A stretch of 64,000 bases of DNA, from the NCBI GenBank assembly GCA_964387845.1, contig CAYLXA010000001.1, positions 224,001-288,000 on the forward strand, written 5' to 3'. The stretch is from an uncultured bacterium. GTDB lineage: Bacteria; Omnitrophota; Omnitrophia; Omnitrophales; Abzuiibacteriaceae. Under the pieces are notes generated by a model. That model worked only from the letters and a program-made list of their open reading frames with translations, made no database searches and was not told the origin of the DNA. Positions 5,521-53,560 of the stretch are shown in pieces; the first letter of the stretch is position 1; each line of letters starts with the position of its first letter. A program made the translations under genes and the position numbers.

Positions 5521-5565
5521 TGGTAGCGGGGGCCGGATTTGAACCGACGACCTTCAGGTTATGAG
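5521..5565 (-). repeat. Displaced 3' half of tRNA-Met, including an encoded CCA. This is the attR-side direct repeat of the island.
   Basis: The 42-nt stretch 5524..5565 is identical to 53424..53465, the 3' half of the intact tRNA-Met. It is preceded on the minus strand by CCA and sits next to the integrase. Confidence 0.8.
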
Positions 5566-5647: not shown

Positions 5648-6877
5648 CTAGTTCTTACAATTGTTTCTTATTTGTGCTGGTTTTGTTAGCACCATGTTAG
5701 CACGGCTTCCAAAAACTTCTTCATCCAATCTCTTCCCTACACCTTCATAAACAACCGGTAGCAAGTGTCCATATCGGTCAAGTGTTGTCTGAATAGAAGC
5801 ATGCCCTAATTGCGACTGAATAAGCTTAATATTTTCCCCCTGTGAAATCAAGAGGGTCGTGTAAGTATGTCTAAGGTCGTGAAACCGCACCCTTCTTAAT
5901 CCAGCCTTTTTGAGAGCACTAGAAAAATCCCGTTTCACCAAATTATCGGGATCCAGCGGATCGCCGTTTACATTGCAAAATATCAGATCGTGAAGTTTGG
6001 GAGGGAACAACTCACGGTATAAATTCAGTCCTTTCTCTAGAACTTTCGACATAACGATTGTTCTTATAGACCTTCTTGATTTTGGTGTAATAAATTTCCA
6101 ACGGTTACAATTCGTTTCTTTAATTTCGCGCCAACAGCGCCAATATAAACTCCTTCTCACGAAAATTATCTTCCGATTCCAGTCGATGTCTTTCCACTGG
6201 AGACCAAGCAACTCCCCTCTTCTCATCCCCGTCAGCACAGCTGTTAAAATGATGGTTCTTAGAGGTTCATCAGAGTTCTTTAAGAGAAGTCTGATATCTT
6301 GCGGTGTAAGAAAATCCATTTCTCTTTGCTCTTCTCGAATTCTGTCAATATCTGCCGCTGGATTTTCAAAGATATATTTCCATTTTCGAGCATGATTAAA
6401 CATGGTTTTTAAAAGGGACAGGTGGTGATTTACCGTCTTGGCGCTTCTTTTATCGTTTAACTCTGAAATGAATTTCTGAATATCATGCGGACGGATACCT
6501 AAAATAGCTCGGTCTCCCAACGCCGGAACAATGGTTGAATTAATCATTGACTCATAATTTCGGAATGTTGAGTCTTTAATAGAAACTCGAGCATAACTGT
6601 CTAGCCATTTCTTTGAAAATTCGGAAAACAAAATCTTGGGTGGCGCAAAGAAAGTTCCTTTATTAACGGATGAGAGTATTTCACTCAGCCTAGCCTCTGC
6701 GTCCTTTTTCTTCGGGCCAATGCGTTCCCACTTTTGCAAACGGCCTGACCTGAATATGATATAGTAGGCTGCTGATTGATGGCTGCATTTGCCGACACCG
6801 TCAGTCGCGTTTTTCCTGCATTTTCCACACCGCCATACGATACTACCTCTTGCCATGACTGCCTCCAGGATTAGCAA
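5648..6877 (-). CDS. int: Tyrosine-type site-specific integrase
   Basis: The C-terminal catalytic region HDLRHTYTTLLISQGENIKLIQSQLGHASIQTTLDRYGHL carries the R..H..R..Y motif. The gene is adjacent to the att repeat. The last ~10 codons read through a TGTTAGCAC repeat. Confidence 0.9.
   Translation of the reverse strand: MLILEAVMARGSIVWRCGKCRKNATDGVGKCSHQSAAYYIIFRSGRLQKWERIGPKKKDAEARLSEILSSVNKGTFFAPPKILFSEFSKKWLDSYARVSIKDSTFRNYESMINSTIVPALGDRAILGIRPHDIQKFISELNDKRSAKTVNHHLSLLKTMFNHARKWKYIFENPAADIDRIREEQREMDFLTPQDIRLLLKNSDEPLRTIILTAVLTGMRRGELLGLQWKDIDWNRKIIFVRRSLYWRCWREIKETNCNRWKFITPKSRRSIRTIVMSKVLEKGLNLYRELFPPKLHDLIFCNVNGDPLDPDNLVKRDFSSALKKAGLRRVRFHDLRHTYTTLLISQGENIKLIQSQLGHASIQTTLDRYGHLLPVVYEGVGKRLDEEVFGSRANMVLTKPAQIRNNCKN
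5685..5706. promoter_or_regulatory. Direct repeat TGTTAGCAC-N4-TGTTAGCAC. The same motif recurs at the other island end, so this is a candidate arm-type integrase-binding site.
   Basis: tgttagcaccatgttagcacgg here; tgttagcaccgtgttagcacgg at 53332..53353. Both lie just inside the att repeats. Confidence 0.4.
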
Positions 6878-10570: not shown

Positions 10571-11814
10571 GAAAGCATACCTCGCTTGAGCGCTTCCAGT
10601 TTCGCCTCGAGAATGCGGAAATTCGCAACACCTTGAATGAAATAAATCCGCGACTTTAAATAATCCTGATAAGCTTCAAAAACCTGAAGACGAGAGGCTT
10701 CGTTAACAATCATTTTCGTTTTTTCATTCTCATAGACCTCTTTCTTTTCCCGTTCAGCGGCTTTGTCTGCCTGAATCTTCTTCCTCGCAACTTCTAATTG
10801 AACCGACATGGCCTTGATCTGCCGTTCAAACTGTTTTATCTCAATCTCACCCTGCAGTTCCGCTTCCTCAACTTCCAGTCTTTTAGCTTGCACGAGATCC
10901 CGTGTCCGTCCAAAGTCCCAAATGTTCCACACGCCTTCAACGCCGAATTCGTAACGGTTCTGGTCCAGAAAGGAATCCTTGGCAACCTTGTACCGGTTTA
11001 GAACTGAAATCTGTGGATAAAGCGAAGAGCGCTCCCTCTTTTCTTCCAATCGCTTTTCTTGGGCGCGCAGCTTCACTTCCTGATAAATGGGATTTTCAGA
11101 ATATTGACTCAAGTCCGGTTTGAACCGTTTAAGATCTTGGAGGGGTTCAAGATCAATGCGAAAATCATCGGGCAGTTTCAAGAGATCTCGCAATAGGTCA
11201 ACCCCGTAATCCATCGTTTTCTTATGACTGACGAGCTCATACTGCGCAGATTTGTATAACGCTTCTGCGCGGTAAACTTCACGTTTTGTAATGAGCTCTT
11301 TTTCATGAAGCGCTTTAAAAGAGCGGTAAATCCTCTCTGACTCTTTCAGCCATTCTTGAGCAAGCAGAGTCATTTCCTTTTCCGTTATTGTTTGAATGAA
11401 AAGCGTCCTGACCTCAAACTGAACGCGCTCACGCTCATTTGAAATCTCGAGCTTCACCTGCTCTTTCTTAACAGAATGAATTTGCGCTTCGCTCCGTGCT
11501 TTCCATCCGTCAAATACCGGAAACACGATTTCGTTGGTCCAAAATAAAACGCCGGAATCCTTCTGCGTGACGGCTGCGCCGTAAGCGCTCGTTCTTACAT
11601 AAGGCCAGCAGAACTTCTTGGCATGTTTCAGCAGCGCTTGTTCCTTTTCAAGGCGGATTTGAAGCAGACGGATGCCCTCGTTGTCATTGAGCACCCGTTC
11701 AAAAGCTTCGTCCAACGTTAAGAGCTTTCCCGCTGGAAGGCCTTCTTCCGGAAACGCGGATGCCGCGTTTCCAAGAAGAAGCATGATGAGTAAACCTGCC
11801 CGCAACAATCTCAT
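10567..11814 (-). CDS. TolC-like outer-membrane efflux protein (OMF family)
   Basis: Signal peptide. A duplicated coiled-coil/beta architecture of ~415 aa. The stop overlaps the GT2 start. Confidence 0.65.
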   Translation of the reverse strand: MRLLRAGLLIMLLLGNAASAFPEEGLPAGKLLTLDEAFERVLNDNEGIRLLQIRLEKEQALLKHAKKFCWPYVRTSAYGAAVTQKDSGVLFWTNEIVFPVFDGWKARSEAQIHSVKKEQVKLEISNERERVQFEVRTLFIQTITEKEMTLLAQEWLKESERIYRSFKALHEKELITKREVYRAEALYKSAQYELVSHKKTMDYGVDLLRDLLKLPDDFRIDLEPLQDLKRFKPDLSQYSENPIYQEVKLRAQEKRLEEKRERSSLYPQISVLNRYKVAKDSFLDQNRYEFGVEGVWNIWDFGRTRDLVQAKRLEVEEAELQGEIEIKQFERQIKAMSVQLEVARKKIQADKAAEREKKEVYENEKTKMIVNEASRLQVFEAYQDYLKSRIYFIQGVANFRILEAKLEALKRGMLS

Positions 11815-15505: not shown

Positions 15506-16296
15506 CAGCCCGGCCTTCCCAAACTTTCAATACCAAGCTGCATCTCGCGCATATATTTAAGACGCTCCCGCTCGAAGCGCTTTTCATCGCGCGACACTTG
15601 CTCTAATTTGGTTGCTTCAACCTCAAGCAACTTGGCGAATATTTCCTGATTCTCTTGCGTAACGACAATCAATTTTCCGGAGGCATCCGCTGAAAGTCTT
15701 GCCGCCCCTTTTGGACTTGCCGTCTGCGATAATTCTTGAATGGTCTCGCCCGCTTGCTTTGTTTCATCTGAGCGCTTTCTAATTTCATGCGCCATTAAGT
15801 AAGCTTCGCCCACCTGCGATTCATCAAATGTGATATAGGGACGCTCCACAGATTGAGGGTCCATTCCATGAATGGTTTCAATATAGGACTTGATGCCTGA
15901 CGGGTCGCCGTAACCTTCAAGTATGGTCCCCAAATTTCGGATGGCGTCTTGTTCAACGGACGGTTCGAATCCAGCAAGGAATCCATCCCGAAATGTCGAC
16001 TGTGAATCTCTGAAGGCCCGCGCCGCATCCTGGACAAAACTTCTCACGAATTCTTCGATGCCAGCGTTAAAGCGCATCATTTCCTGATACGTGTTTTCAA
16101 GTTCCGTAAGCTGATCGAATAATACGATAATTTCCTGTGCAAACTGATTTTCCATCAAGGAATTGCGAAGTTCATTCAGCGCGGCATTGACAAAATCAAT
16201 CACAGGCAGATCCGCCTTCGCTGTGCCGGGGCAGACGGCTAGGCTTGCTGCTAAGTAAAGCGAGATGACCGTCAACCTTAATTTTGGTGATTTCAT
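15505..16296 (-). CDS. trbJ: T4SS component TrbJ/VirB5-like
   Basis: Signal peptide followed by an all-coiled-coil ~260-aa protein, at the expected position after VirB4. Confidence 0.55.
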   Translation of the reverse strand: MKSPKLRLTVISLYLAASLAVCPGTAKADLPVIDFVNAALNELRNSLMENQFAQEIIVLFDQLTELENTYQEMMRFNAGIEEFVRSFVQDAARAFRDSQSTFRDGFLAGFEPSVEQDAIRNLGTILEGYGDPSGIKSYIETIHGMDPQSVERPYITFDESQVGEAYLMAHEIRKRSDETKQAGETIQELSQTASPKGAARLSADASGKLIVVTQENQEIFAKLLEVEATKLEQVSRDEKRFERERLKYMREMQLGIESLGRPG

Positions 16297-18773
16297 ATGG
16301 CAGGAGCCTCCTTACGCCACGTGATTCCTCGCGGATATTTACCCGCGAGTATTCTCAGCCGTTCCAACTCACTCAAACTTGGCTCCATTGCGCGGAGCCT
16401 TTCCTCCTCGATTTGGTCGTTGGGCTCTGTTGTTGCAATCCAGTAGTCAAGGGGCGAGGGCTCAAGCTTAGCCGTGACAGCTTTGTTAAAAAACTTGATG
16501 AAGATTTCGGAGAAAACACCGGGCCTTATTTCCAATTCTTCGCAAGCGCTGACCTCATTCGGATTCAGGTCAAACTTAGACAGCAATTCATGCCCCTTTT
16601 GAAGCTTTAAAATGTATTTCACGTAGGAATTGGAAAGAATGGCGGGTGCCGCCTTTGATTGAAGAAAATCCACAGGGCTTTGGCTGATTGAAAGAACGAG
16701 ACCGTTTGTCTTTCTGGCTGTTCTGTAAAGCTCTTCAATCAGCTTTGAGCCGACATCGTCATTAAAAAAGCGCCATCCTTCGTCAATGACAATGATTTTG
16801 CGGAGCGAAATGTCACCCAGTTTTCTAGCAATGGCGGATCGGATCACAAAAAAAAGAATGGATTGCAGTTCAGGGTGCTGTGAAAGCTTGCCCAAGTCAA
16901 AAACAATGAATCGGTTATCAAAAGTCAGGCTGCTTTGCCGGTTCAAGAGCCTGCCAAAGCGACCTTCGGTCCACATGCTTAAATTCTTTGAGAATTGATA
17001 CGCTTTCCGCTTGTCCTCGTCATCACCCGCCGCATAATTTCGAAGAATCATTTGCACATCGCCCAAAAGAGGTCGGTGTGTATCCTGAATGCTTTCGTAG
17101 ACTTTCAGAATTGATTGTTCAAGAATTCGAAGCTCTGAACTTTTCACTCTCTCCCTCTCAGAGACCATCTTTTCAAGCAGGGTGCTCAGAAAACCTAAAA
17201 GATCGGCGTTCACTTCGCCGGGCTTTGGGAATAATTGACGTTTCTCAGGAAATAGGTTAAGCGCATATTCTTCCGTGCAGTCGATTTGCAAGTAATGACC
17301 GTCAAATAAACGCGCAAGTTTTTTATAACTGCCGCCCATATCGATTACGATAACGTGATTCCGATCTCCTGCGATGAGAAAACTGCTCAGCAAATGATTC
17401 GCAGTGAATGACTTCCCGGAACCCGTGCTCCCAATCATGACTGCATGCTTCGCCGGAAGCGACGGATCAAAAAGATTAAGCGCAAACCCTTCGTCTTCGT
17501 GAGTTTTGAGCAAAATATCGAAGTCATCCGTTCCCTTCCATTCTTCCCCGAGCGGCAATAGATGGCTCAATGCGCCTGTTAAGACAGGAAACACGGATTG
17601 ATTTTGATCGGCCTGCAGGGGTAAATGTGACAGAAACAACGTGTCATGCTCCAAATGATCGAAGATTCCGACTGAGCCGCCCAGTTTCGGGAAAGCTTTC
17701 AAAACAGCTTCCTTCTTACGAGCAAGCGCCGCTTCGTCCTTTGCCTTAATGAGCACAGAAAGCGAGATATCAAAGACGCTTTCGCCTTGCTCGGCCATTT
17801 GATGAAGAAATGATTCGTATTGGGACGCCTTTTGCCTTGCAAAGTGATCCTCTGAAATCCGGAAGAAGGCGTTTGCGTGCGCGAAATTGGCTCTGATTCG
17901 AAGCTTGCCAATTTCTTTGTCCTGGTCTTTCTTCCTAAGAGTAATCATCCATTCTGAATCATCCGGCATAAGGCGATCAAATGACTTAATCATTTTCAAG
18001 CCGACATGGCCGGGCAGCGTCCTTAAATTAGCAGCCGAATGAAAATAACCGTCCATATAAAGCGAATTTCTGTAAATTTTGGGCGGATGAAGCAAGAGCC
18101 GCGACCTCAGCGTTTCAAACTTGGGATTGGTTAATGGATTCTCCTGAAACGCGTCTTCGTATCGGACAATCTGAGATAGTGAAGGATTAAGTTTCCTGTA
18201 GTACTCGCGGATAACGTCCATTGCGGAAAGTCTCTCGACCGTGACACCCAAGGCCTTCAACGCCGTGATGATCAACGACTCAGCTTGAAGCAGATAAGCC
18301 TTGCCTTCTTCATGATTTGAGCGATGAAATGATCTTGACCGCTTCCGTTTTTTCTCAGGGCTTAAATGGCTTAAAAACAAAAAAATTTCCTTTTTTACCA
18401 AACGCGAATTTGTTAGTACATTTACTTTCTCCCGCACGATCACGTTGACCAATGGGTCTTGGCGTGAGGTGTTCGCTTGACACCTCCCGAGCATCTCATC
18501 GTCGCCCCGGCTTGAGCGTTTAACGAATGACAATAAAATCCCTGAGGGCAGCCGATTCAGCAGTTTCTGAAGTTCATGCATGAACGCGACTATTTCGGCG
18601 TCATCATAAAGAAGGTAATCAACACCTGAAACTTTATAGACAAGCGCCATTCGCCCTGAAACCCCGACGGCTAAGCCATCTTCTTCAACAGCCATGAGAT
18701 CAAGTGCCGGGAAAAATGGAACGCGTTGCAGTGAGTCGCTCAATTCTTTAATCGTCAGCAATGTTTCCATCAA
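16293..18773 (-). CDS. trbE: T4SS ATPase TrbE/VirB4
   Basis: 826 aa. Walker A GSTGSGKSF, and a Walker B/DExx region. This is the CagE/TrbE/VirB4 architecture. Confidence 0.85.
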   Translation of the reverse strand: MMETLLTIKELSDSLQRVPFFPALDLMAVEEDGLAVGVSGRMALVYKVSGVDYLLYDDAEIVAFMHELQKLLNRLPSGILLSFVKRSSRGDDEMLGRCQANTSRQDPLVNVIVREKVNVLTNSRLVKKEIFLFLSHLSPEKKRKRSRSFHRSNHEEGKAYLLQAESLIITALKALGVTVERLSAMDVIREYYRKLNPSLSQIVRYEDAFQENPLTNPKFETLRSRLLLHPPKIYRNSLYMDGYFHSAANLRTLPGHVGLKMIKSFDRLMPDDSEWMITLRKKDQDKEIGKLRIRANFAHANAFFRISEDHFARQKASQYESFLHQMAEQGESVFDISLSVLIKAKDEAALARKKEAVLKAFPKLGGSVGIFDHLEHDTLFLSHLPLQADQNQSVFPVLTGALSHLLPLGEEWKGTDDFDILLKTHEDEGFALNLFDPSLPAKHAVMIGSTGSGKSFTANHLLSSFLIAGDRNHVIVIDMGGSYKKLARLFDGHYLQIDCTEEYALNLFPEKRQLFPKPGEVNADLLGFLSTLLEKMVSERERVKSSELRILEQSILKVYESIQDTHRPLLGDVQMILRNYAAGDDEDKRKAYQFSKNLSMWTEGRFGRLLNRQSSLTFDNRFIVFDLGKLSQHPELQSILFFVIRSAIARKLGDISLRKIIVIDEGWRFFNDDVGSKLIEELYRTARKTNGLVLSISQSPVDFLQSKAAPAILSNSYVKYILKLQKGHELLSKFDLNPNEVSACEELEIRPGVFSEIFIKFFNKAVTAKLEPSPLDYWIATTEPNDQIEEERLRAMEPSLSELERLRILAGKYPRGITWRKEAPAI

Positions 18774-19033
18774 ATTTCCTCCCGTGTCTGTGTGAAATAG
18801 GCGGGCATGAAAAAATAACGAATCAAATTCTTAGTAAACCTGTCTGCCTTATTCCTTTTGTAATATCTGAGAAATAAATAGACCGCGAAGACAAATGAAA
18901 GATTGACCATGAGATTCTTTGAGCCGAGAAAGACCATAAGATAGACCGCTAACAAACCAAGCAAGTCCATCCATTCAAGACCGAAGAATTTGTTTTTTTG
19001 TGTAATCATTGGATACATCGTTATTGGCTTCAT
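18770..19033 (-). CDS. trbD: T4SS component TrbD/VirB3
   Basis: 87-aa two-TM protein immediately upstream of VirB4, with overlapping stop and start. Confidence 0.6.
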   Translation of the reverse strand: MKPITMYPMITQKNKFFGLEWMDLLGLLAVYLMVFLGSKNLMVNLSFVFAVYLFLRYYKRNKADRFTKNLIRYFFMPAYFTQTREEI

Positions 19034-19034
19034 G

Positions 19035-19337
19035 CTAAAACCCCGTCACATTCTTTATTAAGTCAAGCACTGCTCGGGCAAGCATAATGAGCGCTCCGCC
19101 CCCTGCTGCCAGGGCACCGCGCCTCATGCCTTGTTCATTTCCAAGCGCCATTGAAATACCAGATACCGCAATTCCGATCACAAGTATTCCAGGACCTACG
19201 CTCTGTATTAGAAAAGTCCCAACAGCATCCAGGAAATAGCCCAACTCTTCTTGATTCTGCGCCTCCGCATACGCAATGCCCGCGTGAAGATAAATAGCCG
19301 TCAGTATCACAAGATATTTCGCAATCATTTTCCGCAT
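19035..19337 (-). CDS. trbC: T4SS pilin TrbC/VirB2
   Basis: A 100-aa product from MRKMIAKYLVILTAIYLHAGIAYA (signal peptide) with two hydrophobic helices. Consensus RBS AAGGTG. The longer ORF-track start at 19430 runs through a conserved non-coding motif and is rejected. Confidence 0.65.
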   Translation of the reverse strand: MRKMIAKYLVILTAIYLHAGIAYAEAQNQEELGYFLDAVGTFLIQSVGPGILVIGIAVSGISMALGNEQGMRRGALAAGGGALIMLARAVLDLIKNVTGF

Positions 19338-19358
19338 ATATTCACCTTGGGGGATAGC

Positions 19359-19376
19359 GGGGTCAATTTTGACCCC
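19359..19376. promoter_or_regulatory. Perfect palindrome GGGGTCAATTTTGACCCC in the trbC leader. It is either an operator or a 5'-UTR hairpin.
   Basis: 8-bp arms around a TT centre, between the conserved promoter motif and the trbC RBS. Confidence 0.4.
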
Positions 19377-19412
19377 GCCCTTTGGAACAGCCGCATGCGC
19401 TGTAAAAGTCCC

Positions 19413-19462
19413 CTCATAGATGTTGTGCAAAAACGGGCATTTCGTAACAAGAAATTTAAAAT
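19413..19462 (-). promoter_or_regulatory. Conserved ~50-bp promoter/operator element, copy 1 (upstream of the trb operon)
   Basis: ctcatagatgttgtgcaaaaacGGGcatttcgtaacaagaaatttaaaat is about 88% identical to 26639..26688. The second copy is upstream of the traG/relaxase operon. Confidence 0.55.
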
Positions 19463-19468
19463 CCCATC

Positions 19469-19837
19469 TTAAAATTTATTTTTCAGTATCTGGATTCCCA
19501 CATATTTCTTGAGTTTGGTCGCAGCCCTGCGTATATGCATCCGTACGATCGCGCTATCTGAAATATTCAACTCTTCTGCTATTTCCAGATTGCTCAATCC
19601 TTGCAATGTTAATCTGACGCACTCACGCTCTCTCTTAGACAGCCCGGCACGACTTATGGCTCGTCTTGCCATTTCTTTCTGTTCATTTTCAATCAGCACC
19701 TCGACCGGCGAGGGCTGAGTGGCCACCTTCTTCAGAATTTCTTGATGCAAATCGGTTTTTGGGTCATTTTCGATCTTCTGAAAATCGACACCGATACGCA
19801 CCGTTCTCTTTGTTTTCCATTGAGTGTTGTTTTCCAT
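19469..19837 (-). CDS. Small sigma-70 region-4/LuxR-type HTH regulator
   Basis: RERECVRLTLQGLSNLEIAEELNISDSAIVRMHIRRAATKL is a sigma-70 r4 HTH. The gene is immediately upstream of the trb promoter motif. RBS GGAGGTGG. Confidence 0.6.
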   Translation of the reverse strand: MENNTQWKTKRTVRIGVDFQKIENDPKTDLHQEILKKVATQPSPVEVLIENEQKEMARRAISRAGLSKRERECVRLTLQGLSNLEIAEELNISDSAIVRMHIRRAATKLKKYVGIQILKNKF

Positions 19838-19997: not shown

Positions 19998-20312
19998 TTA
20001 ATTCCTAATCCTCCGGATTGTTGAGATCCAAGCTTGAAGATCGCGATTCAAGAATCGCAACCGTTCAGCAATGTTTGCCATTGGAGGCTTCTGCTCGATG
20101 ACCTCAATACTCTTTGCGCCTGCCGAATTCGGCTGTCTGGCTTGGAGCCATCCCGCAAACGATTGGGCAAAGAAGCAAATTGCTAAGACCACCGGAGCGA
20201 TGAGAAACATTAAATTGATAAAGGCAGCCAGCATGCACTTCAGCAAGAAAATGGTGAAATTCCGCAGCCTGCCTAATGCCTTTTTTATTTCGGTTAGAAT
20301 GAATTGTTTCAT
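19998..20312 (-). CDS. Small membrane protein of unknown function
   Basis: 104 aa, two hydrophobic helices, followed by a terminator. Confidence 0.4.
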   Translation of the reverse strand: MKQFILTEIKKALGRLRNFTIFLLKCMLAAFINLMFLIAPVVLAICFFAQSFAGWLQARQPNSAGAKSIEVIEQKPPMANIAERLRFLNRDLQAWISTIRRIRN

Positions 20313-20324
20313 TTTGAATTATCC

Positions 20325-21362
20325 TTATACGAGTTGATATTGCCGGTTTTGAATTTCCAAGTTACTTTCCTCCTTTTCGTACTCCGTTAGATAATCAAAG
20401 CTGCAATCTTCACAGAATGAGCCGCCGGTTGCTTCGTCATAAAAGAGTTTGCCGGCTTCCACTTGGTCTTTACACAGTGAACATAGAAGCTTTGATTTTT
20501 CAGTGATGTTTGAATCTTCGAGAAATCCCATATACCGAAGCTCATCAAAGCTGTAGAGATAGGGATTCCCCGGCACTTTGAAGTCATCCTCTGTGAGCGA
20601 CTTGCGCATCGGGTTCTCCATCTCGCAAGGTATTTTTCGCATGGGACATTTTTCAGAAAGTTCTTCAACGTTAATTTTGTAAAGCACGTTGGATTGAATC
20701 TCGAGAAAATTGCCTTTCATGAAGTTTCTTGCAAGAGCGTATTGCAAGTGGATTTTCTCGCTCGACCAAAGCAAGGTTTTGAACTTAGGGACATAAACAG
20801 CGTAAAGCGTCCGTTCAACATTTCGGATGAGATAAAGCGTTTTCCTGTCATCCGTTTGCATGAATGCCAACGCAAAATCCCCAAACATCATCGAAAGCCG
20901 TTCAGCGACTTCTCTGTCGGAGGAGGCGCCATCCAAAACACGGAATACCGCCTCGCTATCGACGTCAGTTTTTTGCTCCGTGTTAAATCGTTTGAGAAGT
21001 TCAGTTCGATTTAGAAAATGCCCATTGTGCACACCGGCAAAATTCTCCGAGACAAACGGATGACAATTCCGGGATGAGATTGCTCCTACTGTGGCAAGCC
21101 GCGTATGGCCCAGAACAATGAGCGTATCCGCACCGATTTTCTTGATGACGTTACGCATCCGGACGGTGCGCAAAAGCTCGCTCGCTGGTCTGGCTTCCTT
21201 GAAAACGGTCATGCTCTCTTCTGCTGCTGTGAGCAATCCAGTTCCGTCTTGACCTCTTGTTTCATTGAGAAAAGCCAAATCCATCACTACGCCTTGAAGC
21301 CTCAGTTTCTCTGCTCCGCTTAAGGGCAGGGCCTCTCTCACAAATCCGAATATTCCACACAT
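20325..21362 (-). CDS. Class-II (Ntn-type) glutamine amidotransferase, YafJ-like, with a C-terminal zinc ribbon
   Basis: MCGIFGF gives the N-terminal nucleophile Cys2. The GATase-II fold continues through ...HTRLATVG...NCHPF. The C-terminus CSLCKD...CEDCS forms a CxxC-Xn-CxxC ribbon. Confidence 0.7.
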   Translation of the reverse strand: MCGIFGFVREALPLSGAEKLRLQGVVMDLAFLNETRGQDGTGLLTAAEESMTVFKEARPASELLRTVRMRNVIKKIGADTLIVLGHTRLATVGAISSRNCHPFVSENFAGVHNGHFLNRTELLKRFNTEQKTDVDSEAVFRVLDGASSDREVAERLSMMFGDFALAFMQTDDRKTLYLIRNVERTLYAVYVPKFKTLLWSSEKIHLQYALARNFMKGNFLEIQSNVLYKINVEELSEKCPMRKIPCEMENPMRKSLTEDDFKVPGNPYLYSFDELRYMGFLEDSNITEKSKLLCSLCKDQVEAGKLFYDEATGGSFCEDCSFDYLTEYEKEESNLEIQNRQYQLV

Positions 21363-21410
21363 GGTAAGTCTCCTTAGGTTTAATTGGGATTGAACTACTG
21401 AAGTGATAAA

Positions 21411-22685
21411 TTACTTTTGAACAGCTGCCAGAGTGGGAGCTGTTTCGAAGAACTTCTCGGGATGAAACTTTAAGATCCTTTGCTCGATGTAATTCCGAAT
21501 CTTCGTCCGGAATTTCAGCAGCACGCAGAATGCCTCAAACTGTTCTTTGAATGAAGCAAACTCCGAAAACCTGAAGTCTCTTTGACGCTTTGACTCGTCT
21601 ACGATCGCTTGGCAGATCACAATGAAATTTGTAATCTTAAGCGGGTTCGTTGTTCCCGAGTGATAGCGAAACTCCACTGAACGCCTGAAGAACCAAGAGT
21701 GAATGTTGACACCGAAGTATCTTGAGTTGTCAAACTTAGACTTCGTATCCACTCGCGCATTCCTTCTGCCGTACCAGAGCCGCTTTAAATCCATCTCATC
21801 TTTGACTTTGAACCGGAACCGTGATTTGGGAAATCGATTGAGCGGCACGGAGTAAGAACCGGAAAACCTTGATTCCGGAAGCATGGCATAAATCACCGGC
21901 TCAAACGCCACCGCAATCTTCAGCAATTTCTTGATGTTCTGAAAATCAAGATCCCGCCCATCAATGTGGACATGAAGACCGCAGCGCTTGTCCACGAAGT
22001 AATTCCAGTCAAGCAGCTTTTGAGTGAAAATGGCGATTTCGTTAAAGCCGTCATCGCCTTGAAGAATCGGGCTCGCAAATTCCATGCCCCAATCTCCCAG
22101 AGAGCCGTCATGCTGTTTGCTCCAAGCGCCCACTTCATCAACCGGAAGATGCATTTCCTCATCCCGAAGTATGGCTTCAATTTCCACGCCGTATTTTCTT
22201 TTTGATTTGCACAGTTTGAATTTAGCCGACGAAAATTCATGGTGCTGAATCAGCTCGCCGTTCTCCACCATGCGGTCGTAACAGTCTTCACAGTAAGTTG
22301 ACTCCCCTCTTCTAAAGCAGCGGGTAGAGTCAACCTCAGAACCGCAATCCTCGCAGAAGATTATGTTTTCAGATTCACAGGCGGAGCAGTAATAGACGTC
22401 CTGCAAATCTGAATAACGAGCGTCCTCTGACGCCGCATATTCCCCGCAGGCATTGCATTCCCTGTAATTGGCGTGAAAGCAGCTTTCACAAAGCCTCAAC
22501 CCTGCAACTGCAAAGGATTCGTCAAGCCACATGGGACGTTCGCATTTCCCGCACGGCTTCACACGTTTTTCAAAACACGCCGGGCAAAGATACCGGTCTT
22601 GATAGGTTTTAAACAAATCGACGTTTACGACAACACTGCAGGACGGGCATTTCTTTTCTTCTGCCCGTATTTCCAAAAGTTCCAT
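21411..22685 (-). CDS. Glutamine-synthetase/GCS2-like carboxylate-amine ligase (amidoligase) with an N-terminal array of four zinc ribbons
   Basis: Eight CxxC pairs lie in the first ~150 aa. They are followed by YGVEIEA, GMEFASP, GLHVHIDG and SVEFRYH, which resemble the E-x-E / H-x-H / EfR motifs of YbdK/GCS2-type ligases. Confidence 0.55.
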   Translation of the reverse strand: MELLEIRAEEKKCPSCSVVVNVDLFKTYQDRYLCPACFEKRVKPCGKCERPMWLDESFAVAGLRLCESCFHANYRECNACGEYAASEDARYSDLQDVYYCSACESENIIFCEDCGSEVDSTRCFRRGESTYCEDCYDRMVENGELIQHHEFSSAKFKLCKSKRKYGVEIEAILRDEEMHLPVDEVGAWSKQHDGSLGDWGMEFASPILQGDDGFNEIAIFTQKLLDWNYFVDKRCGLHVHIDGRDLDFQNIKKLLKIAVAFEPVIYAMLPESRFSGSYSVPLNRFPKSRFRFKVKDEMDLKRLWYGRRNARVDTKSKFDNSRYFGVNIHSWFFRRSVEFRYHSGTTNPLKITNFIVICQAIVDESKRQRDFRFSEFASFKEQFEAFCVLLKFRTKIRNYIEQRILKFHPEKFFETAPTLAAVQK

Positions 22686-22709: not shown

Positions 22710-22898
22710 TCAAACTGTCTGGTGATCTTGGCTTTGGTTTTTAACTGACATGCGATCTCTGCGCTTTCGCTCATAGAGACGCTTTAATATCCACAAGGGA
22801 ACGAACGTCCAATACCCTCTTGGCCTTCCTGTCCACTCCGAAAGCTGGTCCGCATAAACTGATTTGTCTTCTGAGTCAAAAATGATGTAGGGATTCAT
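22710..22898 (-). CDS. Small hypothetical protein (62 aa)
   Basis: Good RBS AAGGAG upstream. It lies between the amidoligase and a hairpin. Confidence 0.35.
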   Translation of the reverse strand: MNPYIIFDSEDKSVYADQLSEWTGRPRGYWTFVPLWILKRLYERKRRDRMSVKNQSQDHQTV

Positions 22899-23141: not shown

Positions 23142-23369
23142 CTAGCTGACTTGGACTTGCTGTTCAGCTCTGCGCAAACCTTCAATCAGTTCGCCGATGA
23201 GCGCACAGTTAATTGTGACGCCTTTCTTCGTCGGCCGCGCTTCGCCCGTTACGGCATCAGCGAAAAAGACCCTGACATCAACGTAATCACGGTCTTTGTA
23301 CTTGCCGACTGAGATTTTAACTTCTTCGTTTTCATTACGTTTAAAACTGTAAATTTCCTGCTTTTCCAT
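23142..23369 (-). CDS. PC4-like ssDNA-binding protein (second paralogue)
   Basis: KYKDRDYVDVRVFFADAVTGEARPTKKGVTINCALIGELIEGL is the PC4/YdbC signature. RBS AAAGGAGA. Confidence 0.6.
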   Translation of the reverse strand: MEKQEIYSFKRNENEEVKISVGKYKDRDYVDVRVFFADAVTGEARPTKKGVTINCALIGELIEGLRRAEQQVQVS

Positions 23370-23452: not shown

Positions 23453-23493
23453 ACAAAAAAGGGGAAGAAGCCTGCTGAACAGACCTCTTCCCC
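23453..23493 (-). terminator. Rho-independent terminator after the coupling-protein gene
   Basis: GGGGAAGAAG...CTCTTCCCC hairpin. On the minus strand it is followed by TTTTTTG. Confidence 0.55.
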
Positions 23494-23536
23494 TCTTTTG
23501 ATTTAATGTTAAATTAGGACTTAATTAGCGATTAAC

Positions 23537-25360
23537 TCATCGTTTGGCTCCTCTTATCTTTTCAAATTTATGCGCAGTATCACTGAGCGTTTGAAACTGA
23601 TCGCTTTCGTCTTGAACGATTTCAGGCTTTGCGCTTTCACGTTTCCAATGCTCTGTTGCCCGCTCACGTTCATCTTTAATCTTCATGTGTATCCATGTTA
23701 AATTAATGTCTGTTTCAGAGGACAGCCGCAGATAATCAATTTTAAAACTTGGATATTTCATGACAACAATCGCTTCGCCGCGTCCAAGTGAACGAACCAA
23801 GTCAGGGTCGATGCGAAACGTCTGCGCTTCTCTGACAGATCCTCGCCCTGTCATGTCTGTGCCGAGCATGCCGGATTCAGTCTGATACGTGGAAACAAAA
23901 GTTCTTCGGGAGCCTCCAATTTTTGAATATTTGTCAATCGAGAATGGGTCATCCTGACGCATGATGATTTTTACGTTTGTGTTCTCGAGGATTTGCTGCT
24001 GAAAGGTCATGCGCTTCGCCGCGAGGTCAGCCAGGCTTTGGTGAAGAAGCGTTACAGCAAGTTTGGCGCCGCGCGCTTTATTCATGAAATCGATGAAGTT
24101 CTCGTAGACAAAGCTTGAAAATTCATCCACGTACACAGGAAAAAAGTGCCGCTCACCCTCTTCCATCTGCGTTTGAATGTAGTTGGAAACTGTTTTAATG
24201 TCCTGCAGGATGAGACGCCCGAATCTTTTCGCCGTTTCTTCGTAGCCCTGCGTATTGAGTGCGAAATAGACAATTTTATTCTTCTGATAAACCTCTAGGA
24301 GGTCAATTTTTGATTCCTGAGAATCCGTCAGTCTTGAAAACTCTGATTTAGTTACGAGGCCTAAATCCGCGATGAATCCAGAGAGAAACTTGGTATTATC
24401 ATGAAACATGTCTTTCATGACTTCCAAGTCCTTCGACATCCGGATATCGTCAAGCTGCGCTATCAGCGCTCGTAATTGATTCTTGTCCGTTAAAAGCTCA
24501 TACAAATCCCGGAACCTGACTTTTCTGTTCAAACTCACCAAAGCTCTGAGCAATGTCAATGCGGCTTCTTCCGCCTTTTTTCTGTAAAATTCCTCGCGCC
24601 ATTCAGTAGAGCCGATCAGTTTGTCCTTAATCTCTGATGCGTTTCCGCGCAAGAGTGGGTTGTATGTGTCCGATATTTCCGGATGTGATAGCGAGAAGAA
24701 TAGAAAGTCATCTTTCCTGCCGTTAATTTGAACAAAGTAACGAATCTTCGCCAATAATTCCAAATCGCCCTTGGCGTCCACGACTATCGCCCCGCGGCCT
24801 CGCTCGATATCCCTTTTAAGCAGCGGAAGCATGACTGATTCTGTTTTACCAACGCCCGTTGAACCTACAACATGCGTATGCATGAGCCTCATGTCATCCG
24901 TTAAGTAACAGCCCTTGCCCGACCAATAACTCGTACCCAGATAAGCTTGATTCGCCTCAACCGCCGTTTTTTGCTTCGTGATTTCTCTCGAAGAAATTCT
25001 CTTCAATCTGCGTTTCTTATCGTCAGAGGATGTATCTTTCGAATTCTTCATTGCATATCCCGTCAACATGAAAAACGGCAATGTAATCAACAAATAGGCG
25101 CTGTAGAGGCACGTAGCCGCGACTCCCGCTTTCGTCCAAGGTCTCGCCTCAAACCTTTCAACAAACCCATTTAAATATTTAATTGACCAAATGGTCGTAA
25201 GCGCTGCAAGCAAGGTGCTCAAATAAGCTATTATCTTGACCCAAGAACTAGATTGATTCTTGACCCATCCGTCAAGCTTCTTGCCCAACCATACCGGAAC
25301 GGATACGAAAAGGAATTCAAACGTTGACCCCGTAAGGCCCTTTGACGGCTTCTCATTCAT
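23537..25360 (-). CDS. traG: Type IV coupling protein (VirD4/TraG family)
   Basis: Two N-terminal TM helices. Walker A VVGSTGVGKTE. A TraG/TrwB-type nucleotide-binding domain of 607 aa. Confidence 0.8.
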   Translation of the reverse strand: MNEKPSKGLTGSTFEFLFVSVPVWLGKKLDGWVKNQSSSWVKIIAYLSTLLAALTTIWSIKYLNGFVERFEARPWTKAGVAATCLYSAYLLITLPFFMLTGYAMKNSKDTSSDDKKRRLKRISSREITKQKTAVEANQAYLGTSYWSGKGCYLTDDMRLMHTHVVGSTGVGKTESVMLPLLKRDIERGRGAIVVDAKGDLELLAKIRYFVQINGRKDDFLFFSLSHPEISDTYNPLLRGNASEIKDKLIGSTEWREEFYRKKAEEAALTLLRALVSLNRKVRFRDLYELLTDKNQLRALIAQLDDIRMSKDLEVMKDMFHDNTKFLSGFIADLGLVTKSEFSRLTDSQESKIDLLEVYQKNKIVYFALNTQGYEETAKRFGRLILQDIKTVSNYIQTQMEEGERHFFPVYVDEFSSFVYENFIDFMNKARGAKLAVTLLHQSLADLAAKRMTFQQQILENTNVKIIMRQDDPFSIDKYSKIGGSRRTFVSTYQTESGMLGTDMTGRGSVREAQTFRIDPDLVRSLGRGEAIVVMKYPSFKIDYLRLSSETDINLTWIHMKIKDERERATEHWKRESAKPEIVQDESDQFQTLSDTAHKFEKIRGAKR

Positions 25361-26088
25361 CCCAAGATGGAGCGTAGAGGAATTCTGGATGCCTTATTCA
25401 TCAGCTCCGCATCTTTCTTTTTCAGTAAGAGCTCATCATAGAGCACAAAGCAAAGCTTATTCTGAGGAACTTCAATGTCCAATAGCCAGCTCTTCACCAT
25501 GTGCCAAGACAGGATATAAATCACCAGGGTGAAATCATTTAGACGGCTGTATTTCGCAAACCTTGTCTCATACCTTTCCCGTTCCCTGAAGGAATTTTCA
25601 AGTTCAATCGCAATTCTCTGCCCGCTTACTTCGATGACCGCGTCAGGAAAAAATTCCCGGTCGTGCTCTTCTTTTCTGACAACCCGTTCGCTCAGCCATT
25701 TAACACCCTTAAAGTCCCGAAACAGGCACCGCAACGTCGCCAACTTGAGCGTATGCTCTATCGTATATTGGTTGATATCCCCGATTTCTCCAAAGCCACG
25801 GTCCAGCCCTTTCTCTTTCAAGACATCTATCCCCTCAGCCGTCAGCAGAAAAAGTCTCACTTTTTCTGATTTCGCCTTCTGGACATCCAAAGTCCTAATA
25901 AATCCTGCATCAACAAGCTTGCTCAAACGCTGCCTTGCAGTTCCTGACCTCACTTCGCTGTCAGGCCAAAATGCCGAGTAAATTTGATTCGCCATCATGT
26001 ACTTTTGTTCATTCAAGTACGTGAATATCTCGATATCACGCTCTGTAATGACGACACGCCGCAATTTATCCAATAAGTTTTCAGCCAC
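25357..26088 (-). CDS. Replication-relaxation (Replic_Relax) family protein, the candidate relaxase/mobilisation protein
   Basis: N-terminal wHTH (IFTYLNEQKYMMANQIYSAF...RLSKLVDAGFI). C-terminal FFPDAVIEV...IAIELENS matches the PDa...lEvD core of the Replic_Relax family. It overlaps traG by 4 nt. Confidence 0.5.
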   Translation of the reverse strand: MAENLLDKLRRVVITERDIEIFTYLNEQKYMMANQIYSAFWPDSEVRSGTARQRLSKLVDAGFIRTLDVQKAKSEKVRLFLLTAEGIDVLKEKGLDRGFGEIGDINQYTIEHTLKLATLRCLFRDFKGVKWLSERVVRKEEHDREFFPDAVIEVSGQRIAIELENSFRERERYETRFAKYSRLNDFTLVIYILSWHMVKSWLLDIEVPQNKLCFVLYDELLLKKKDAELMNKASRIPLRSILG

Positions 26089-27004: not shown

Positions 27005-30000
27005 TTATATAGTAGCCTCTGCGTCTTGGGTAAGCTCTTGTTTCATTTGTTCATCGCCGTAATTTCCAACATCTAAATAAAATTGATGCGCAGGGTGTTC
27101 TACACTAAAAAGCTTTGCGGTTTCCTTACCGCGAGTTGCTAGATTTTGGCTCTTTGCTGAGACTTCTCCAAATGACCTTGATGATCCCCCGCTAATTGCT
27201 ATTCCAAATAGATTGGATTTTACACGTTTAAGGCATTCAGCAGATTTATTTGAAGCCAATAGAATCAACTCTCCAACAAAAGCGTGCTCGTTAAATATAA
27301 AATTATCCTCCGCGTCTCTGACTAAAAGAGATATGCCCACAAGTTTATTTACAGTAGGATTTTTAAACCACTCTTTTAATATAGCTAAAGATTTAGCCGA
27401 ATACCCATCTGAAACTGCCCGAAAAAGCTTTTCAAGCCAAAAACGATCCGCTGTTTTTGCTAAAGACAGATTTCGAACTACTCTTACGTGCTTCTCATAT
27501 CCCATCATCGTGGAAATACCTTTATAAGCAGTGTCAAATCCTAAATACGGAAGGGGCGTATAATTTTCTCTTCTTGTAAGTTTTTTGACGGGCTTAGTTG
27601 ATTGACTATATAAATAGCGTGCAACTAAAAACTCAACGGCTGCCTGCGGATATTTTCTACAAACAAAAGAAAGGAATTCCTCAACATGGAAATCCTGCCG
27701 TTCAAAGATGTTAAATTTAACCAATTTGCTTAATAAGGATTTTAATTCGGTTTCATTCAGCTTAGAAAATGGAATGCCATAGTTCTCATTATAAATTTCA
27801 AAAAATTGGTCGAGCACTATTCCTCTTTCTTTCAAATCAATGCCCACAGCAAGTTTCTTAGCAGCTTCCGCATCAACCTGCCCTAGTTTTTGAAGTGCCT
27901 GAAGCGCCGTGCCAAAAATATTGTCGTTGCTATGTTTGAGTAAATACCCTACATTCTGGATATCCTCTTTAAAGGGTTTTTCTAAAAGGCCGCCCCAAGC
28001 GTAGGCATGAGCAATGTTGTGGTAGACGATTTGCCTTTTTGTTTTTAGTCCTTGTTTAATTAACGCCCTACTGATTTCTCGATAACTTTCCAATCCATTC
28101 AAGGGCCATAAAATTGATGAGCAAAATTTTTCCACTTCACCATTCTTTCTAGCGAGGCAAAGCTTAAATAATTTTACGGCGAAATCGGGATTGAGTTTTG
28201 TAATTTGAGAAAGAAGGTAATTGGGGTTAGCTGATCTTTTGTAGTGATTTAAATCGCGTAATCTTTTTTCTAAAACCATTAACAACTGACGAGGATTCTT
28301 AGCCTGTTTCAATAAGATTTCAGCTACCCCGCTCACCTCTTTTGCCGTTATTTCAGTTTGTTTACTAAAATCATGCTTTTTATTAACAAATTCTTCGAAA
28401 TCGTGAGCTATCGCACGGACAAGACGATATTCGAAATTCTCCGGTATAAGCTCATAAATACTTTTGATTTTTTTCTTTAATTCGTCGTGCCTTCCAAACA
28501 AACTAAACCAACGAAGTTGCGATCTTACGGCAAGTCGGAAACAGGACGACTTAATGATCTTTAATTTTCTTTTAACCAATTCGAGAATTGATAACTGTTC
28601 TGGCAAATAAACATCTTGCTCTGACTTTCCAGCGCGACGACCGTATAGTCCATGAGAATAGCTCAATGCTTTTAAGAGAGTATAAAGAGCTTCCATTAAC
28701 ATCTTTGGCGGGGCATCCGGTTGGATGAAGGAGCCAAGTAATTCTATAGTGCTATTACGCAAGTTTTTCACGGCTTCGTAATTTAAAGGCAAAGACCTGA
28801 AGGACATGCTTCCTTCATCGTACGAAGACTCTTCAATCTCTTTCGCGAGGAATTCTTCCAAAATATTCAAAGGTGTATAACGGTAAATAAAGTTATTTTT
28901 CTTGGCCACGGTTTCTTTAAGGAAGGCAAAAACTTTCTTATTGTAAACAAGGGGCTTTCCGACTTGATATTCAGCCAACTCTTTTAAGATTCTAACGGAA
29001 TGCTGCGGATGAGGATTTAATTCTCTTTCGTCAGTTTTTGCAATTTCCCAGAGAATTTTACAGGCAGGAGTGACATATTCTAAATTAAAGGCTATCTTTT
29101 TTAATATAGATGGAATTTTTTCCAATACATGACGATGCTTCCAGAAATCTCCATATAATTGCTTCTTAGGATTAGGGCGTGCGGGCGCTTTAATGGCGTG
29201 GTTTACTAGCTCTAATGCTTTATCAGGTTGATAATACGCCGACTCTTCGATTTCTTCCAAGATTTTAGTTCGCTCATAATGATCAGCTTTTCTAAAATCT
29301 TCGTGGATTTTTTTCCAAACGGAACTTAAAAGATCTACATTCAAGGCATTTTTTCTTGCTCGCCACTCTACTTCAGAAATATTTTTAAGAATGTTTTTTG
29401 CTAGAGTTGATTTAAATTTCTCATACACATGATCAGCAAATTTAGTGCTTGAGCCATCTTTGGCAATACAGGCTGAGTGAAGAATATGATCACTCAATAA
29501 ATCAGGAGCAAGCCTTGCCAACGCTCCGCGTCTTATCAAAACCCCTTTTTCTTCCATCGCATCAAATGCTTTGACAATATCAAAAACAGGACACGCAAGA
29601 AGTTCGGACAATTGTTTCCGTAACTCCTCGTTATTCAATCTCACTGGGGCAAGCACAGAAAGATATTGAAGAAGCTTATCTGCTAATCCCGGATTGGAGT
29701 AATTTTCTCCTTTAAGTTCATCTATAAATTTATCTAAAACGGTTCTTTGAAATTCATCGCTTTTGCTTATTTTGTATGGATGCAGCTTTTTATCGCGAAT
29801 TAATTTGCTGGCAATTACCGCTGCCAGGGGGCAGTCTCTGGTCATAGCCACGATATATTTAATCAGGCCAGAATCATGTCCGACAATGCTTTCAACGATT
29901 TCTTCTAAATCAACCTTTTTCAAATCACTTAACTCCGGAGGCCGTTCGATTTCGTTTAACAAAAGATTTGTATGCGCCAATACACTATCGACAAATTCTT

Positions 30001-49450: not shown

Positions 49451-49453
49451 TGC

Positions 49454-53416: not shown

Positions 53417-53423
53417 ACGAAAC

Positions 53424-53497
<74 letters not shown>

Positions 53498-53560
53498 ATA
53501 AAAGATAAAAACGAAGATGTATTATATAAAGCGAATGACAGATTTGCAAGCGCGGCTAAT

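Follow-up and report, generated by a model that had tools for sequence, protein, structure and literature searches.

The window analysed here is a stretch of 64,000 nucleotides from an uncultured bacterium of the phylum Omnitrophota (assembly GCA_964387845.1, contig CAYLXA010000001.1, positions 224,001 to 288,000 of the forward strand) and it contains an integrative conjugative element (ICE). Two blocks of transfer genes of this element enclose a pair of adjacent minus-strand genes, which encode a predicted carboxylate-amine ligase (amidoligase) of 424 aa and a predicted class-II glutamine amidotransferase of 345 aa (Table 1). The amidoligase gene is upstream and the amidotransferase gene follows after a spacer of 48 bp, each being preceded by a ribosome-binding site of the AAGGAGA type. 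The pair had been picked out in a first-pass annotation made from the DNA letters, whose two open reading frames (ORFs) and quoted motifs were all recovered at the same positions; the enzyme identities that it assigned agree by profile, predicted fold and conserved catalytic residues, and the neighbouring genes confirm the site between the two transfer gene blocks.

Two predicted enzymes and their cysteine-rich modules

The catalytic domain of the amidoligase, from residue ~160 to 424, contains the motifs GVEIE at residue 166, GLHVHID at 236 and VEFRYH at 337. The 424-aa protein matches the Pfam family Amidoligase_2 (PF12224; E 1.2e-24, 87.9 bits, cut-off 22) as well as the amidoligase families of PHROG (best E 1.4e-28), and fourteen residues are invariant in an alignment of 101 homologues, namely E168, E170, D193, S195, E202, G236, H238, H240, R273, R322, Y323, N327, E338, and R340. 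The E-x-E, H-x-H, and E-x-R elements are in the pattern expected of a metal, ATP and acyl-phosphate site, and the position of the motifs suggests their equivalence to the site of glutamine synthetase (GS). Sequence searches returned no solved structure for the catalytic domain, the matches to LIM domains being confined to the N-terminus; among the 19 top structural matches, the characterised enzymes all activate the gamma-carboxylate of glutamate. Activation of this carboxylate is in fact common to GS, glutamate-cysteine ligase, YbdK, GmaS, and PafA. The 424-aa protein is a predicted ATP-dependent carboxylate-amine ligase of the GS fold with an intact set of residues.

The amidotransferase begins with MCGIFGF and is recognised by the profiles GATase_6 (49.5 bits, cut-off 27), GATase_7 (34.8 bits, cut-off 25), and GATase_4 (27.9 bits, cut-off 23). 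In 25 homologues, whose identity goes down to 26%, the invariant positions are M1-C2-G3-I4, G6, R36-G37, H86, R88, T91, H101-P102-F103, H112-N113-G114, and D135-S136. C2, R88, N113-G114, and D135 lie in motifs that can be aligned with those of PurF and GlmS (HTR, HNG, and DSE/DTE for the last three), namely the motifs of the nucleophile, the arginine that binds the carboxylate of glutamine, the Asn-Gly of the oxyanion hole and the aspartate that binds the amino group of glutamine. The AlphaFold2 model (pLDDT 89.3) has as its top Foldseek matches the glutaminase domain of GlmS (1xff, E 9e-15) and PurF, and the same order of similarity emerges from profile comparison with the Protein Data Bank (PDB), in which GlmS scores 66.6 bits and PurF 63.8 bits as against ~26 bits for stand-alone class-II domains of the YafJ type. 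No chain labelled EgtC is present among the PDB profile matches at E<=1; the NCBIfam EgtC model gives E 1e-5 and 24.8 bits with a cut-off of 218. The 345-aa protein is a predicted Cys N-terminal nucleophile (Ntn) hydrolase with a complete glutamine site and, as judged from profiles and model, is much closer to the ammonia-delivering domains of GlmS and PurF than to the stand-alone hydrolases of its class.

Both proteins carry cysteine-rich modules. In the amidoligase, eight CxxC pairs (residues 13, 34, 45, 66, 77, 100, 111, and 132) form four predicted zinc units of the type CxxC-x17-20-CxxC, separated by 7-residue spacers, within the first ~150 residues, and the model repeats a strand/helix pattern four times with high confidence. 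All five Cys pairs from C66 to C135 are invariant in one alignment of amidoligases (A1), and the four pairs from C77 to C135 are kept in at least 90% of the 101 sequences of the other (A2). The family profile matches the tandem LIM domains of PINCH (7lt9, E 2e-5), and precomputed Pfam LIM matches (PF00412) are found on four homologues; in the window protein there is no Pfam LIM match, all ligands are Cys and the spacer between fingers has 7 residues versus 2, so the N-terminal fingers are best described as LIM-like. In the amidotransferase, a single ribbon of the type CxxC-x19-CxxC (C294, C297, C317, and C320) is located within an acidic C-terminal extension of 100 residues; in the model, four short strands lead into a long helix (318-344). 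C294 and C317 do not vary among the homologues, and C297 and C320 are kept in at least 90% of them, distant phage homologues included. The conservation of the catalytic residues and of most Cys pairs, invariant or kept in at least 90% of the 101 amidoligases and 25 amidotransferases, marks these features as more than a product of chance.

A hidden Markov model (HMM) of the amidoligase zinc unit recognises 23 of 85 amidotransferase ribbons at E<=0.01 and none of 85 shuffled controls, and both proteins thus appear to carry the same kind of module; the cross-match identifies a common motif type, short and defined by its cysteines, for which homology is not proven. A further common trait is the acidity of these regions. 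The amidoligase N-terminus has a median charge of -23 and an isoelectric point (pI) of 4.15 among 100 homologues (-11 and 4.77 in the window), and the charge of the amidotransferase tail ranges from -7 to -20 in 23 of 25 homologues (-12, with a pI of 4.24, for the window extension). Because the modules of both enzymes are strongly acidic, nucleic-acid binding, which the first-pass annotation had considered for the zinc ribbons, is improbable and was rejected as a function of these modules across the family; their charge favours protein-protein contacts, by which the two enzymes may bind each other or a basic target.

The conjugative element, its relatives and the phage counterparts

The element is 47.9 kb long and is delimited by a 42-bp repeat, of which the right copy lies in a tRNA-Met gene; outside it there are housekeeping genes, encoding BacA, a HemN-like protein and MgtC at the left and enolase at the right. 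An integrase, direct repeats at a tRNA gene, a relaxase-like protein, a coupling protein and a VirB4-based type IV secretion system (T4SS) are all present, as is characteristic of an ICE. The genes between the two ends of the transfer region are ordered on one strand as follows: a 135-aa ORF, Replic_Relax, the coupling protein, a hairpin, the PC4-like protein, a 62-aa ORF (orf62), the amidoligase, the amidotransferase, a 104-aa predicted membrane protein (orf104), a LuxR-type regulator, TrbC/VirB2, an 87-aa ORF, VirB4, VirB9, and VirB10. The hairpin is likely a terminator that parts the operon of relaxase and coupling protein from a unit led by the PC4 gene and including the pair. No Pfam match was obtained for orf62, and neither Pfam nor PADLOC gave a match for orf104. 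The loci retrieved for comparison are cited by number (L).

Table 1. The gene pair, its domains and the surrounding features of the element, with positions in the window.
Feature	Coordinates	Strand	Remarks
Amidoligase gene, 424 aa: N-terminal zinc-finger array and predicted carboxylate-amine ligase domain of GS/GCS2 fold	21411..22685	-	ORF
Predicted zinc-finger region of the amidoligase, codons 1-150	22236..22685	-	four zinc units, two LIM-like double fingers, acidic
Amidoligase catalytic domain, residues ~160-424	21411..22208	-	
Class-II (Ntn) glutamine amidotransferase gene, 345 aa	20325..21362	-	ORF, profiles, conserved residues, fold
Predicted C-terminal zinc ribbon of the amidotransferase, residues 291-320	20403..20492	-	Cys conservation, model
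orf62, 62 aa, directly upstream of the amidoligase	22710..22898	-	backbone gene; 49% identity in L002-L004; also in L140 and L141, without the pair
orf104, 104-aa predicted membrane protein, downstream of the pair	19998..20312	-	backbone gene; homologues at 13 loci; also in L140, without the pair
PC4-like protein, first gene past the coupling-protein terminator	23142..23369	-	PF02229, E 5e-11
Terminator-like hairpin between coupling-protein and PC4 genes	23456..23498	-	20-bp stem, then T run
VirD4-type coupling protein	25360..23537	-	
Replic_Relax protein	26088..25357	-	
LuxR/GerE-type regulator	19837..19469	-	
TrbC/VirB2 pilin	19430..19035	-	
87-aa ORF between pilin and VirB4 genes		-	homologue of an L141 gene with weak VirB3 match
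VirB4	18773..16293	-	LuxR-to-VirB4 block 16293..19837
Tyrosine integrase beside the left repeat	6877..5648	-	
Left attachment repeat, copy of the tRNA-Met end	5524..5565		perfect 42-bp direct repeat
tRNA-Met gene, including the right attachment repeat (53424-53465)	53423..53498	-	

Close orthologues of the amidoligase (44-73% identity) come from metagenomes only, and the named records among them are Candidatus Omnitrophota genomes. The amidotransferase gene directly follows that of the amidoligase in all 17 Omnitrophota-type loci that are long enough (~14 of them distinct), and wherever flanks are present in the fetched loci the pair is located downstream of the coupling-protein/PC4 genes and upstream of VirB2/VirB4. 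In ten Omnitrophota ICE loci a gene for a RadC-like JAB-domain protein, not present in the window, directly precedes the amidoligase (L005 3549-4043; L085 9424-9918; L087 9165-9905; L089 2123-2788; and six more loci), and in L005 a restriction-modification system is inserted directly after the pair.

The relation of the pair to the transfer machinery is illuminated by a search with the coupling protein, which returned at least 141 related clusters, and by the inspection of four long contigs that were not previously known to carry the pair. One of them (L140) has the same backbone as the window, composed of Replic_Relax (64% identity), coupling protein (66%), PC4 (63%), orf62, orf104, the LuxR regulator, VirB2 (66%), and VirB4; in the gap between orf62 and orf104, four genes replace the pair, two of them without Pfam match, followed by genes for an AAA_5 ATPase and for a DUF2201 protein. 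L142 and L143 have the same alternative module and no pair, and the slot of L141 is filled with small genes, a second PC4 copy among them, again without the pair. Since these sister ICEs have the same backbone and other genes in the slot, the pair is an exchangeable cassette, a payload and not a part of the transfer machinery, and the slot itself, with a block of transfer genes on either side, has the look of a hot spot for such cassettes. A core conjugation function was rejected on these grounds, and the conjugation-linked role envisaged in the first-pass annotation is improbable in view of the other cassette found beside a coupling protein of 66% identity. As a separate observation, the alternative module (L140 6448-10277; L142 10064-15407; L143 10149-15448) comprises, besides an AAA_5 (MoxR-like) ATPase and a DUF2201 protein, one or two proteins of ~360-380 aa for which Pfam gives no match.

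Outside this clade the amidoligase belongs to a large family. When 1.84 billion representative proteins (50% identity clusters) were searched with its profile, 31,100 representatives were obtained at E<=0.001 and 2,504 at E<=1e-30, the whole Omnitrophota ICE clade amounting to a single representative; nearly all of the best 150 matches start in the zinc-finger region (first ~76 of 427 profile positions) and span the catalytic domain. Viral contigs yielded 78 loci, 41 of which encode a full-length zinc-finger amidoligase (26-33% identity). In 39 of these 41 the amidotransferase gene is adjacent, usually upstream, and its product likewise ends in CxxC...CxxC. The genetic coupling of the two enzymes is thus tight in elements as far apart as marine phages and Omnitrophota ICEs. 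The neighbours in the viral loci, identified by inspection, include a Sak annealing protein, a pyrimidine-dimer glycosylase and a DnaB-like helicase, which places the pair in the replication/recombination block of the phages. The zinc-finger decoration, which the first-pass annotation had called unusual, is on this sequence evidence standard in a large, mainly viral subfamily and no oddity of the window ICE. Among the 120 closest amidoligase homologues the longer ones merely add zinc units or unrelated extensions.

Of the 41 viral loci, 32 encode a conserved protein of ~100 aa beside the pair, 30 of them between the two genes (for example L014 5660-5977 and L009 5636-5956). Its N-terminus is rich in Lys and its C-terminal tail hydrophobic, and an N-P-F motif is invariant. 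The protein has no significant match in Pfam and might act as a substrate or as a third component of the system. Its identification as the counterpart of orf104 was rejected (hhalign probability 0.3%).

Amidoligases without zinc fingers have other partners. In 75 of 77 such loci there is no detectable amidotransferase neighbour, the remaining two (L047 and L128) having weak matches, and in 41 of the 77 a gamma-glutamyl cyclotransferase of the GGACT/AIG2 type is encoded beside the amidoligase. Loci of this kind are found in L046-L084 and L116-L134 (for example L077 5557-6033), and those with a cyclotransferase are often near orphan DNA methyltransferases (ParB-N6 methylase, Dcm) and prophage terminase genes. 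Taken as a whole, the loci fetched by homology to the window amidoligase are mostly in phages, prophages, ICEs and conjugative plasmids. In particular, the conjugative plasmid pCW3 of Clostridium perfringens (NC_010937.1; L139, 5341-6747) encodes a family protein of 468 aa near dcm, the interval being occupied by a 57-aa ORF and a DUF4417 gene, and ~95 Clostridium plasmid records in total encode such a protein. Zinc-less amidoligases also occur in Bacteroidales loci. In several loci, from Bacteroides, Parabacteroides and a metagenome-assembled genome of Actinomycetes (L101, L106, L108, L110, L111, and L115), the amidoligase has ~310 aa and a weak VirB4 match (24-26% identity) lies 4-6 kb downstream of it, with a ParA-like gene upstream in most of them; these loci may represent a third kind of conjugative element carrying the family.

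Candidate reactions and roles of the pair

Amidoligase systems of phages and mobile elements were reportedly predicted by Iyer, Abhiman, Burroughs and Aravind in 2009 (Mol Biosyst 5:1636). The window pair resembles the predicted PF12224 systems in its ligase family, in having a class-II amidotransferase as partner, in residing on invasive DNA and in a function that is predicted only; it differs from them in its minimal form of two genes, in its setting within an ICE from an uncultured phylum and in the acidic zinc modules of both enzymes. Its placement among these systems by the first-pass annotation fits the Pfam PF12224 entry and the citing papers PMC10580990 and PMC5498523, and none of the outcomes that the annotation had named as contradicting it was encountered: the 424-aa protein neither falls into an unrelated fold nor lacks its catalytic residues, and the N-terminal Cys nucleophile is kept in 25 of 25 amidotransferase sequences. 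The locus is therefore a member of a known, predicted kind, whose annotation is well supported and holds no surprise for a specialist; what is new is the swappable two-gene cassette in Omnitrophota ICEs, the recognition of an acidic zinc module on both enzymes and the finding that amidoligase subfamilies differ in their partner, an amidotransferase in some and a cyclotransferase in others. Later papers only repeat the prediction as 'cell-wall modification to prevent superinfection' or 'auxiliary metabolic genes' (PMC10945688, PMC10580990, PMC11318856, PMC5498523), and a co-occurrence with thymidine-hypermodification genes is noted without explanation in PMC8989533. Sixteen years after the prediction, no experimental characterisation or demonstrated substrate of any Amidoligase_2 member was found in the searchable literature.

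Several known systems can be compared with the pair. The seven-gene 'peptidoglycan modification cassette' of RIO-1, LUZ24, PaP3, and phiEco32-like podoviruses (PMC5498523, PMC3890496) also unites an Amidoligase_2 protein and a nearby class-II amidotransferase in an early/replication block; it also includes an ATP-grasp enzyme, a gamma-glutamyl cyclotransferase and another COOH-NH2 ligase, families that gave no match among the ORFs scanned from 12 kb to 31.4 kb of the window, and the LUZ24-type amidotransferase has ~486 aa instead of 345. In MurT/GatD (PMC3267633) two proteins encoded by adjacent genes likewise carry out an ATP- and glutamine-dependent amidation of a glutamate carboxylate, but MurT has the Mur-ligase fold and GatD is a class-I amidotransferase, so that the analogy is one of logic only; asparagine synthetase, too, follows the glutamine-dependent logic proposed below with a different ligase fold. 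YbdK/GCS2 and glutamate-cysteine ligases, at 10-15% identity, are housekeeping small-molecule enzymes without zinc fingers or a partner amidotransferase, whereas PafA/Dop are similar in fold and differ in that no Pup-like tag or proteasome genes lie near the window pair and the partner is an Ntn hydrolase, not a second GS-fold enzyme. The glutaminase domains of GlmS and PurF are the nearest relatives of the amidotransferase in sequence and fold, with an identical set of catalytic and glutamine-binding residues; they are fused to a synthase, while the window domain stands alone and has a zinc ribbon and helix. In the biosynthesis of ergothioneine, the GCS2-type ligase EgtA adds a gamma-glutamyl group which is removed later by EgtC, a hydrolase similar to class-II amidotransferases; in contrast to the pair, these enzymes belong to a chromosomal metabolic pathway with intervening enzymes, and the EgtC match is weak.

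The reading favoured here, tentatively and with a probability of about 0.4, is that the two proteins constitute a split glutamine-dependent amidotransferase. The analysis shows the domains and folds of the two proteins, their conserved catalytic residues, their strict adjacency, the exchange of the cassette and its spread among phages; how ammonia is coupled, which carboxylate is activated, what the zinc modules do and what the pair is for are inferred, as follows. The stand-alone Cys-Ntn amidotransferase would split glutamine through a gamma-glutamyl thioester on Cys2 and free ammonia, the amidoligase of GS/GCS2 fold would phosphorylate a carboxylate with ATP, and the ammonia would then attack the acyl-phosphate, with the consequent generation of an amide. 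Through the zinc fingers and the ribbon the two enzymes would dock with one another and/or onto a target, a basic protein or an envelope precursor, and not onto nucleic acid, and the cassette would serve the establishment or the competition of the element by manipulation of the host or recipient, by anti-defence or by superinfection exclusion; in fact, because the cassette is common to phages and is swapped within an ICE backbone, a role in establishment or competition is most likely, and not one in DNA transfer. The closeness to GlmS and PurF, the complete glutamine site, the strict co-occurrence with an ATP-dependent activator of carboxylates and the MurT/GatD precedent are all in favour of this split amidotransferase. 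Known defence systems were rejected as an identity of the locus, as no PADLOC defence model matched either enzyme or the neighbours tested.

A number of points weigh against the split amidotransferase. The complex of the two enzymes and the ammonia channel between them are postulated, and no fusion of amidoligase and amidotransferase occurs among the 120 closest amidoligase homologues. The position after the active-site Arg is Leu89 in the window amidotransferase, where GlmS has Trp74 and PurF Tyr74, the aromatic residue that gates the ammonia channel in these enzymes. The cyclotransferase found beside zinc-less amidoligases cleaves gamma-glutamyl-amine bonds and supplies no ammonia, which hints that bond cleavage is the general role of the partner. 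Moreover, free glutamate cannot be the substrate, since its amidation together with a glutaminase would be a futile cycle, so that the carboxylate has to belong to another molecule; in view of the acidity and the LIM-like nature of the modules, its most plausible bearer would be a basic protein or an envelope precursor.

Several of these points suit a different chemistry and the main rival reading, a gamma-glutamyl writer/eraser pair, in which the amidoligase would join the gamma-carboxylate of glutamate to the amine of a protein lysine, a polyamine or a precursor, and the amidotransferase-like enzyme would hydrolyse or mature the product; as a whole, with these targets, it is possible, if doubtful. 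The characterised structural relatives of the amidoligase have exactly this carboxylate specificity, a cyclotransferase is the partner at 41 of the 77 zinc-less loci, no fusions of the two enzymes exist among the 120 homologues, and the residues that bind glutamine would suit a gamma-glutamyl moiety equally. The partner is also reportedly described as a 'thiol peptidase' in the PF12224 entry of Pfam, EgtC is present among its NCBIfam matches (E 1e-5), and EgtA/EgtC and PafA/Dop provide precedents; the amidotransferase partner is listed as a degradative enzyme in PMC5498523. Against it stand the much greater proximity of the amidotransferase to GlmS and PurF than to the stand-alone hydrolases of the class, and the futility of co-expressing writer and eraser from a two-gene cassette without intervening enzymes, unless they are split in time or place. 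In addition, the pair is not flanked by a small tag gene with a terminal Gln or Glu, nor by one for a product that ends in Gly-Gly-Gln/Glu, the products of orf62 and orf104 ending in ...DHQTV and ...RRIRN. A related proposal, unlikely on balance, combines this chemistry or the amidation with a defined target: upon cell entry, the fingers would recruit a basic host protein of the nucleoid or of a defence system, and the ligase and its Ntn partner would glutamylate a lysine or amidate a glutamate, neutralising the target. If true, this would amount to a novel chemistry of counter-defence at the post-translational level, akin to pupylation in its fold.

Modification of the cell wall, in which a peptidoglycan precursor of the element-bearing cell would be altered to exclude superinfection or entry, bears on the target and is compatible with either chemistry. 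This hypothesis of Iyer et al. 2009 and Hardies et al. 2013, relayed in PMC5498523, PMC10580990, and PMC11318856 and offered in the phage literature for the larger amidoligase cassettes, draws on the precedent of a ligase and a glutaminase in peptidoglycan amidation (MurT/GatD, PMC3267633); however, it is purely inferential in the literature, the searchable part of which contains no experiment on it, only two of the seven cassette genes are in the window, no ATP-grasp enzyme, COOH-NH2 ligase or cyclotransferase is nearby, acidic LIM-like fingers are no obvious means of recognising nucleotide- or lipid-linked muropeptides, and no membrane or export feature was detected in either enzyme, all of which makes it rather improbable as a specific target. 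An auxiliary metabolism of nitrogen or glutamine yielding a free small molecule is very unlikely. Both enzyme families do act mostly on small molecules, and the corresponding phage genes are read as metabolic in PMC10945688 and PMC10580990; yet a soluble metabolite would make the conserved tandem zinc modules of both enzymes needless, the cassette is located among transfer and establishment genes in ICEs or in replication/recombination modules in phages, and no transporter or further biosynthetic gene accompanies it. Least probable, with hardly a chance of being right, is a modification of DNA or of a nucleobase precursor that would protect the transferred or packaged DNA: co-occurrence with thymidine-hypermodification genes in some viral contigs (PMC8989533), the PC4-like protein, of a single-stranded-DNA-binding family, beside the cassette and the orphan DNA methyltransferases near zinc-less relatives are consistent with it, but the zinc modules are strongly acidic, and no base-modification gene of the hydroxymethylase, kinase or glycosylase type is present among the conserved neighbours of the 41 viral loci or in the ICE.

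The locus is of interest as a minimal, self-contained version of these systems, with two genes, boundaries that are marked by a natural cassette swap and zinc modules that could be used as baits for the target. Were this target identified, thousands of phage and ICE genes whose present labels, 'auxiliary metabolic' or 'cell-wall modifying', have no evidence behind them would gain a function.

Further genes of the element

PC4 is a single-stranded-DNA-binding family, and its gene follows that of the coupling protein in most related ICEs examined (L140 5603-5833; L142 9093-9323; L143 9637-9867), being duplicated in L141 (5113-5388 and 6392-6619). The PC4-like protein may have a role equivalent to that of the single-stranded-DNA-binding proteins (SSB) of other conjugative elements.

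The remaining cargo of the ICE is all on the minus strand. Directly upstream of the relaxase block (27005-30919) is the gene of a 1304-aa protein with an N-terminal DUF4062 domain and a STAND-type NTPase, situated in a stretch of low GC content (0.38-0.41) and without PADLOC match. A 2070-aa protein of the RHS/Tc toxin type, with SpvB, TcdB_toxin_midN, RHS repeats and FG-GAP, is encoded at 33980-40192 and adjoins a 503-aa protein with Ig-like domains (40194-41705). Receiver-domain proteins, a seven-transmembrane (7TM) histidine kinase and a methyltransferase occupy 44423-49831, overlapping another low-GC stretch (0.36-0.40, 44-50 kb), and a further receiver-domain protein with a helix-turn-helix is located near the right end of the element (52529-53152). 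At the other side, beside VirB10, the genes at 7330-11814 encode a TolC-like outer-membrane factor, a family-2 glycosyltransferase, an HlyD-type adaptor and a nucleotidyltransferase, a group that could be an export or polysaccharide module.

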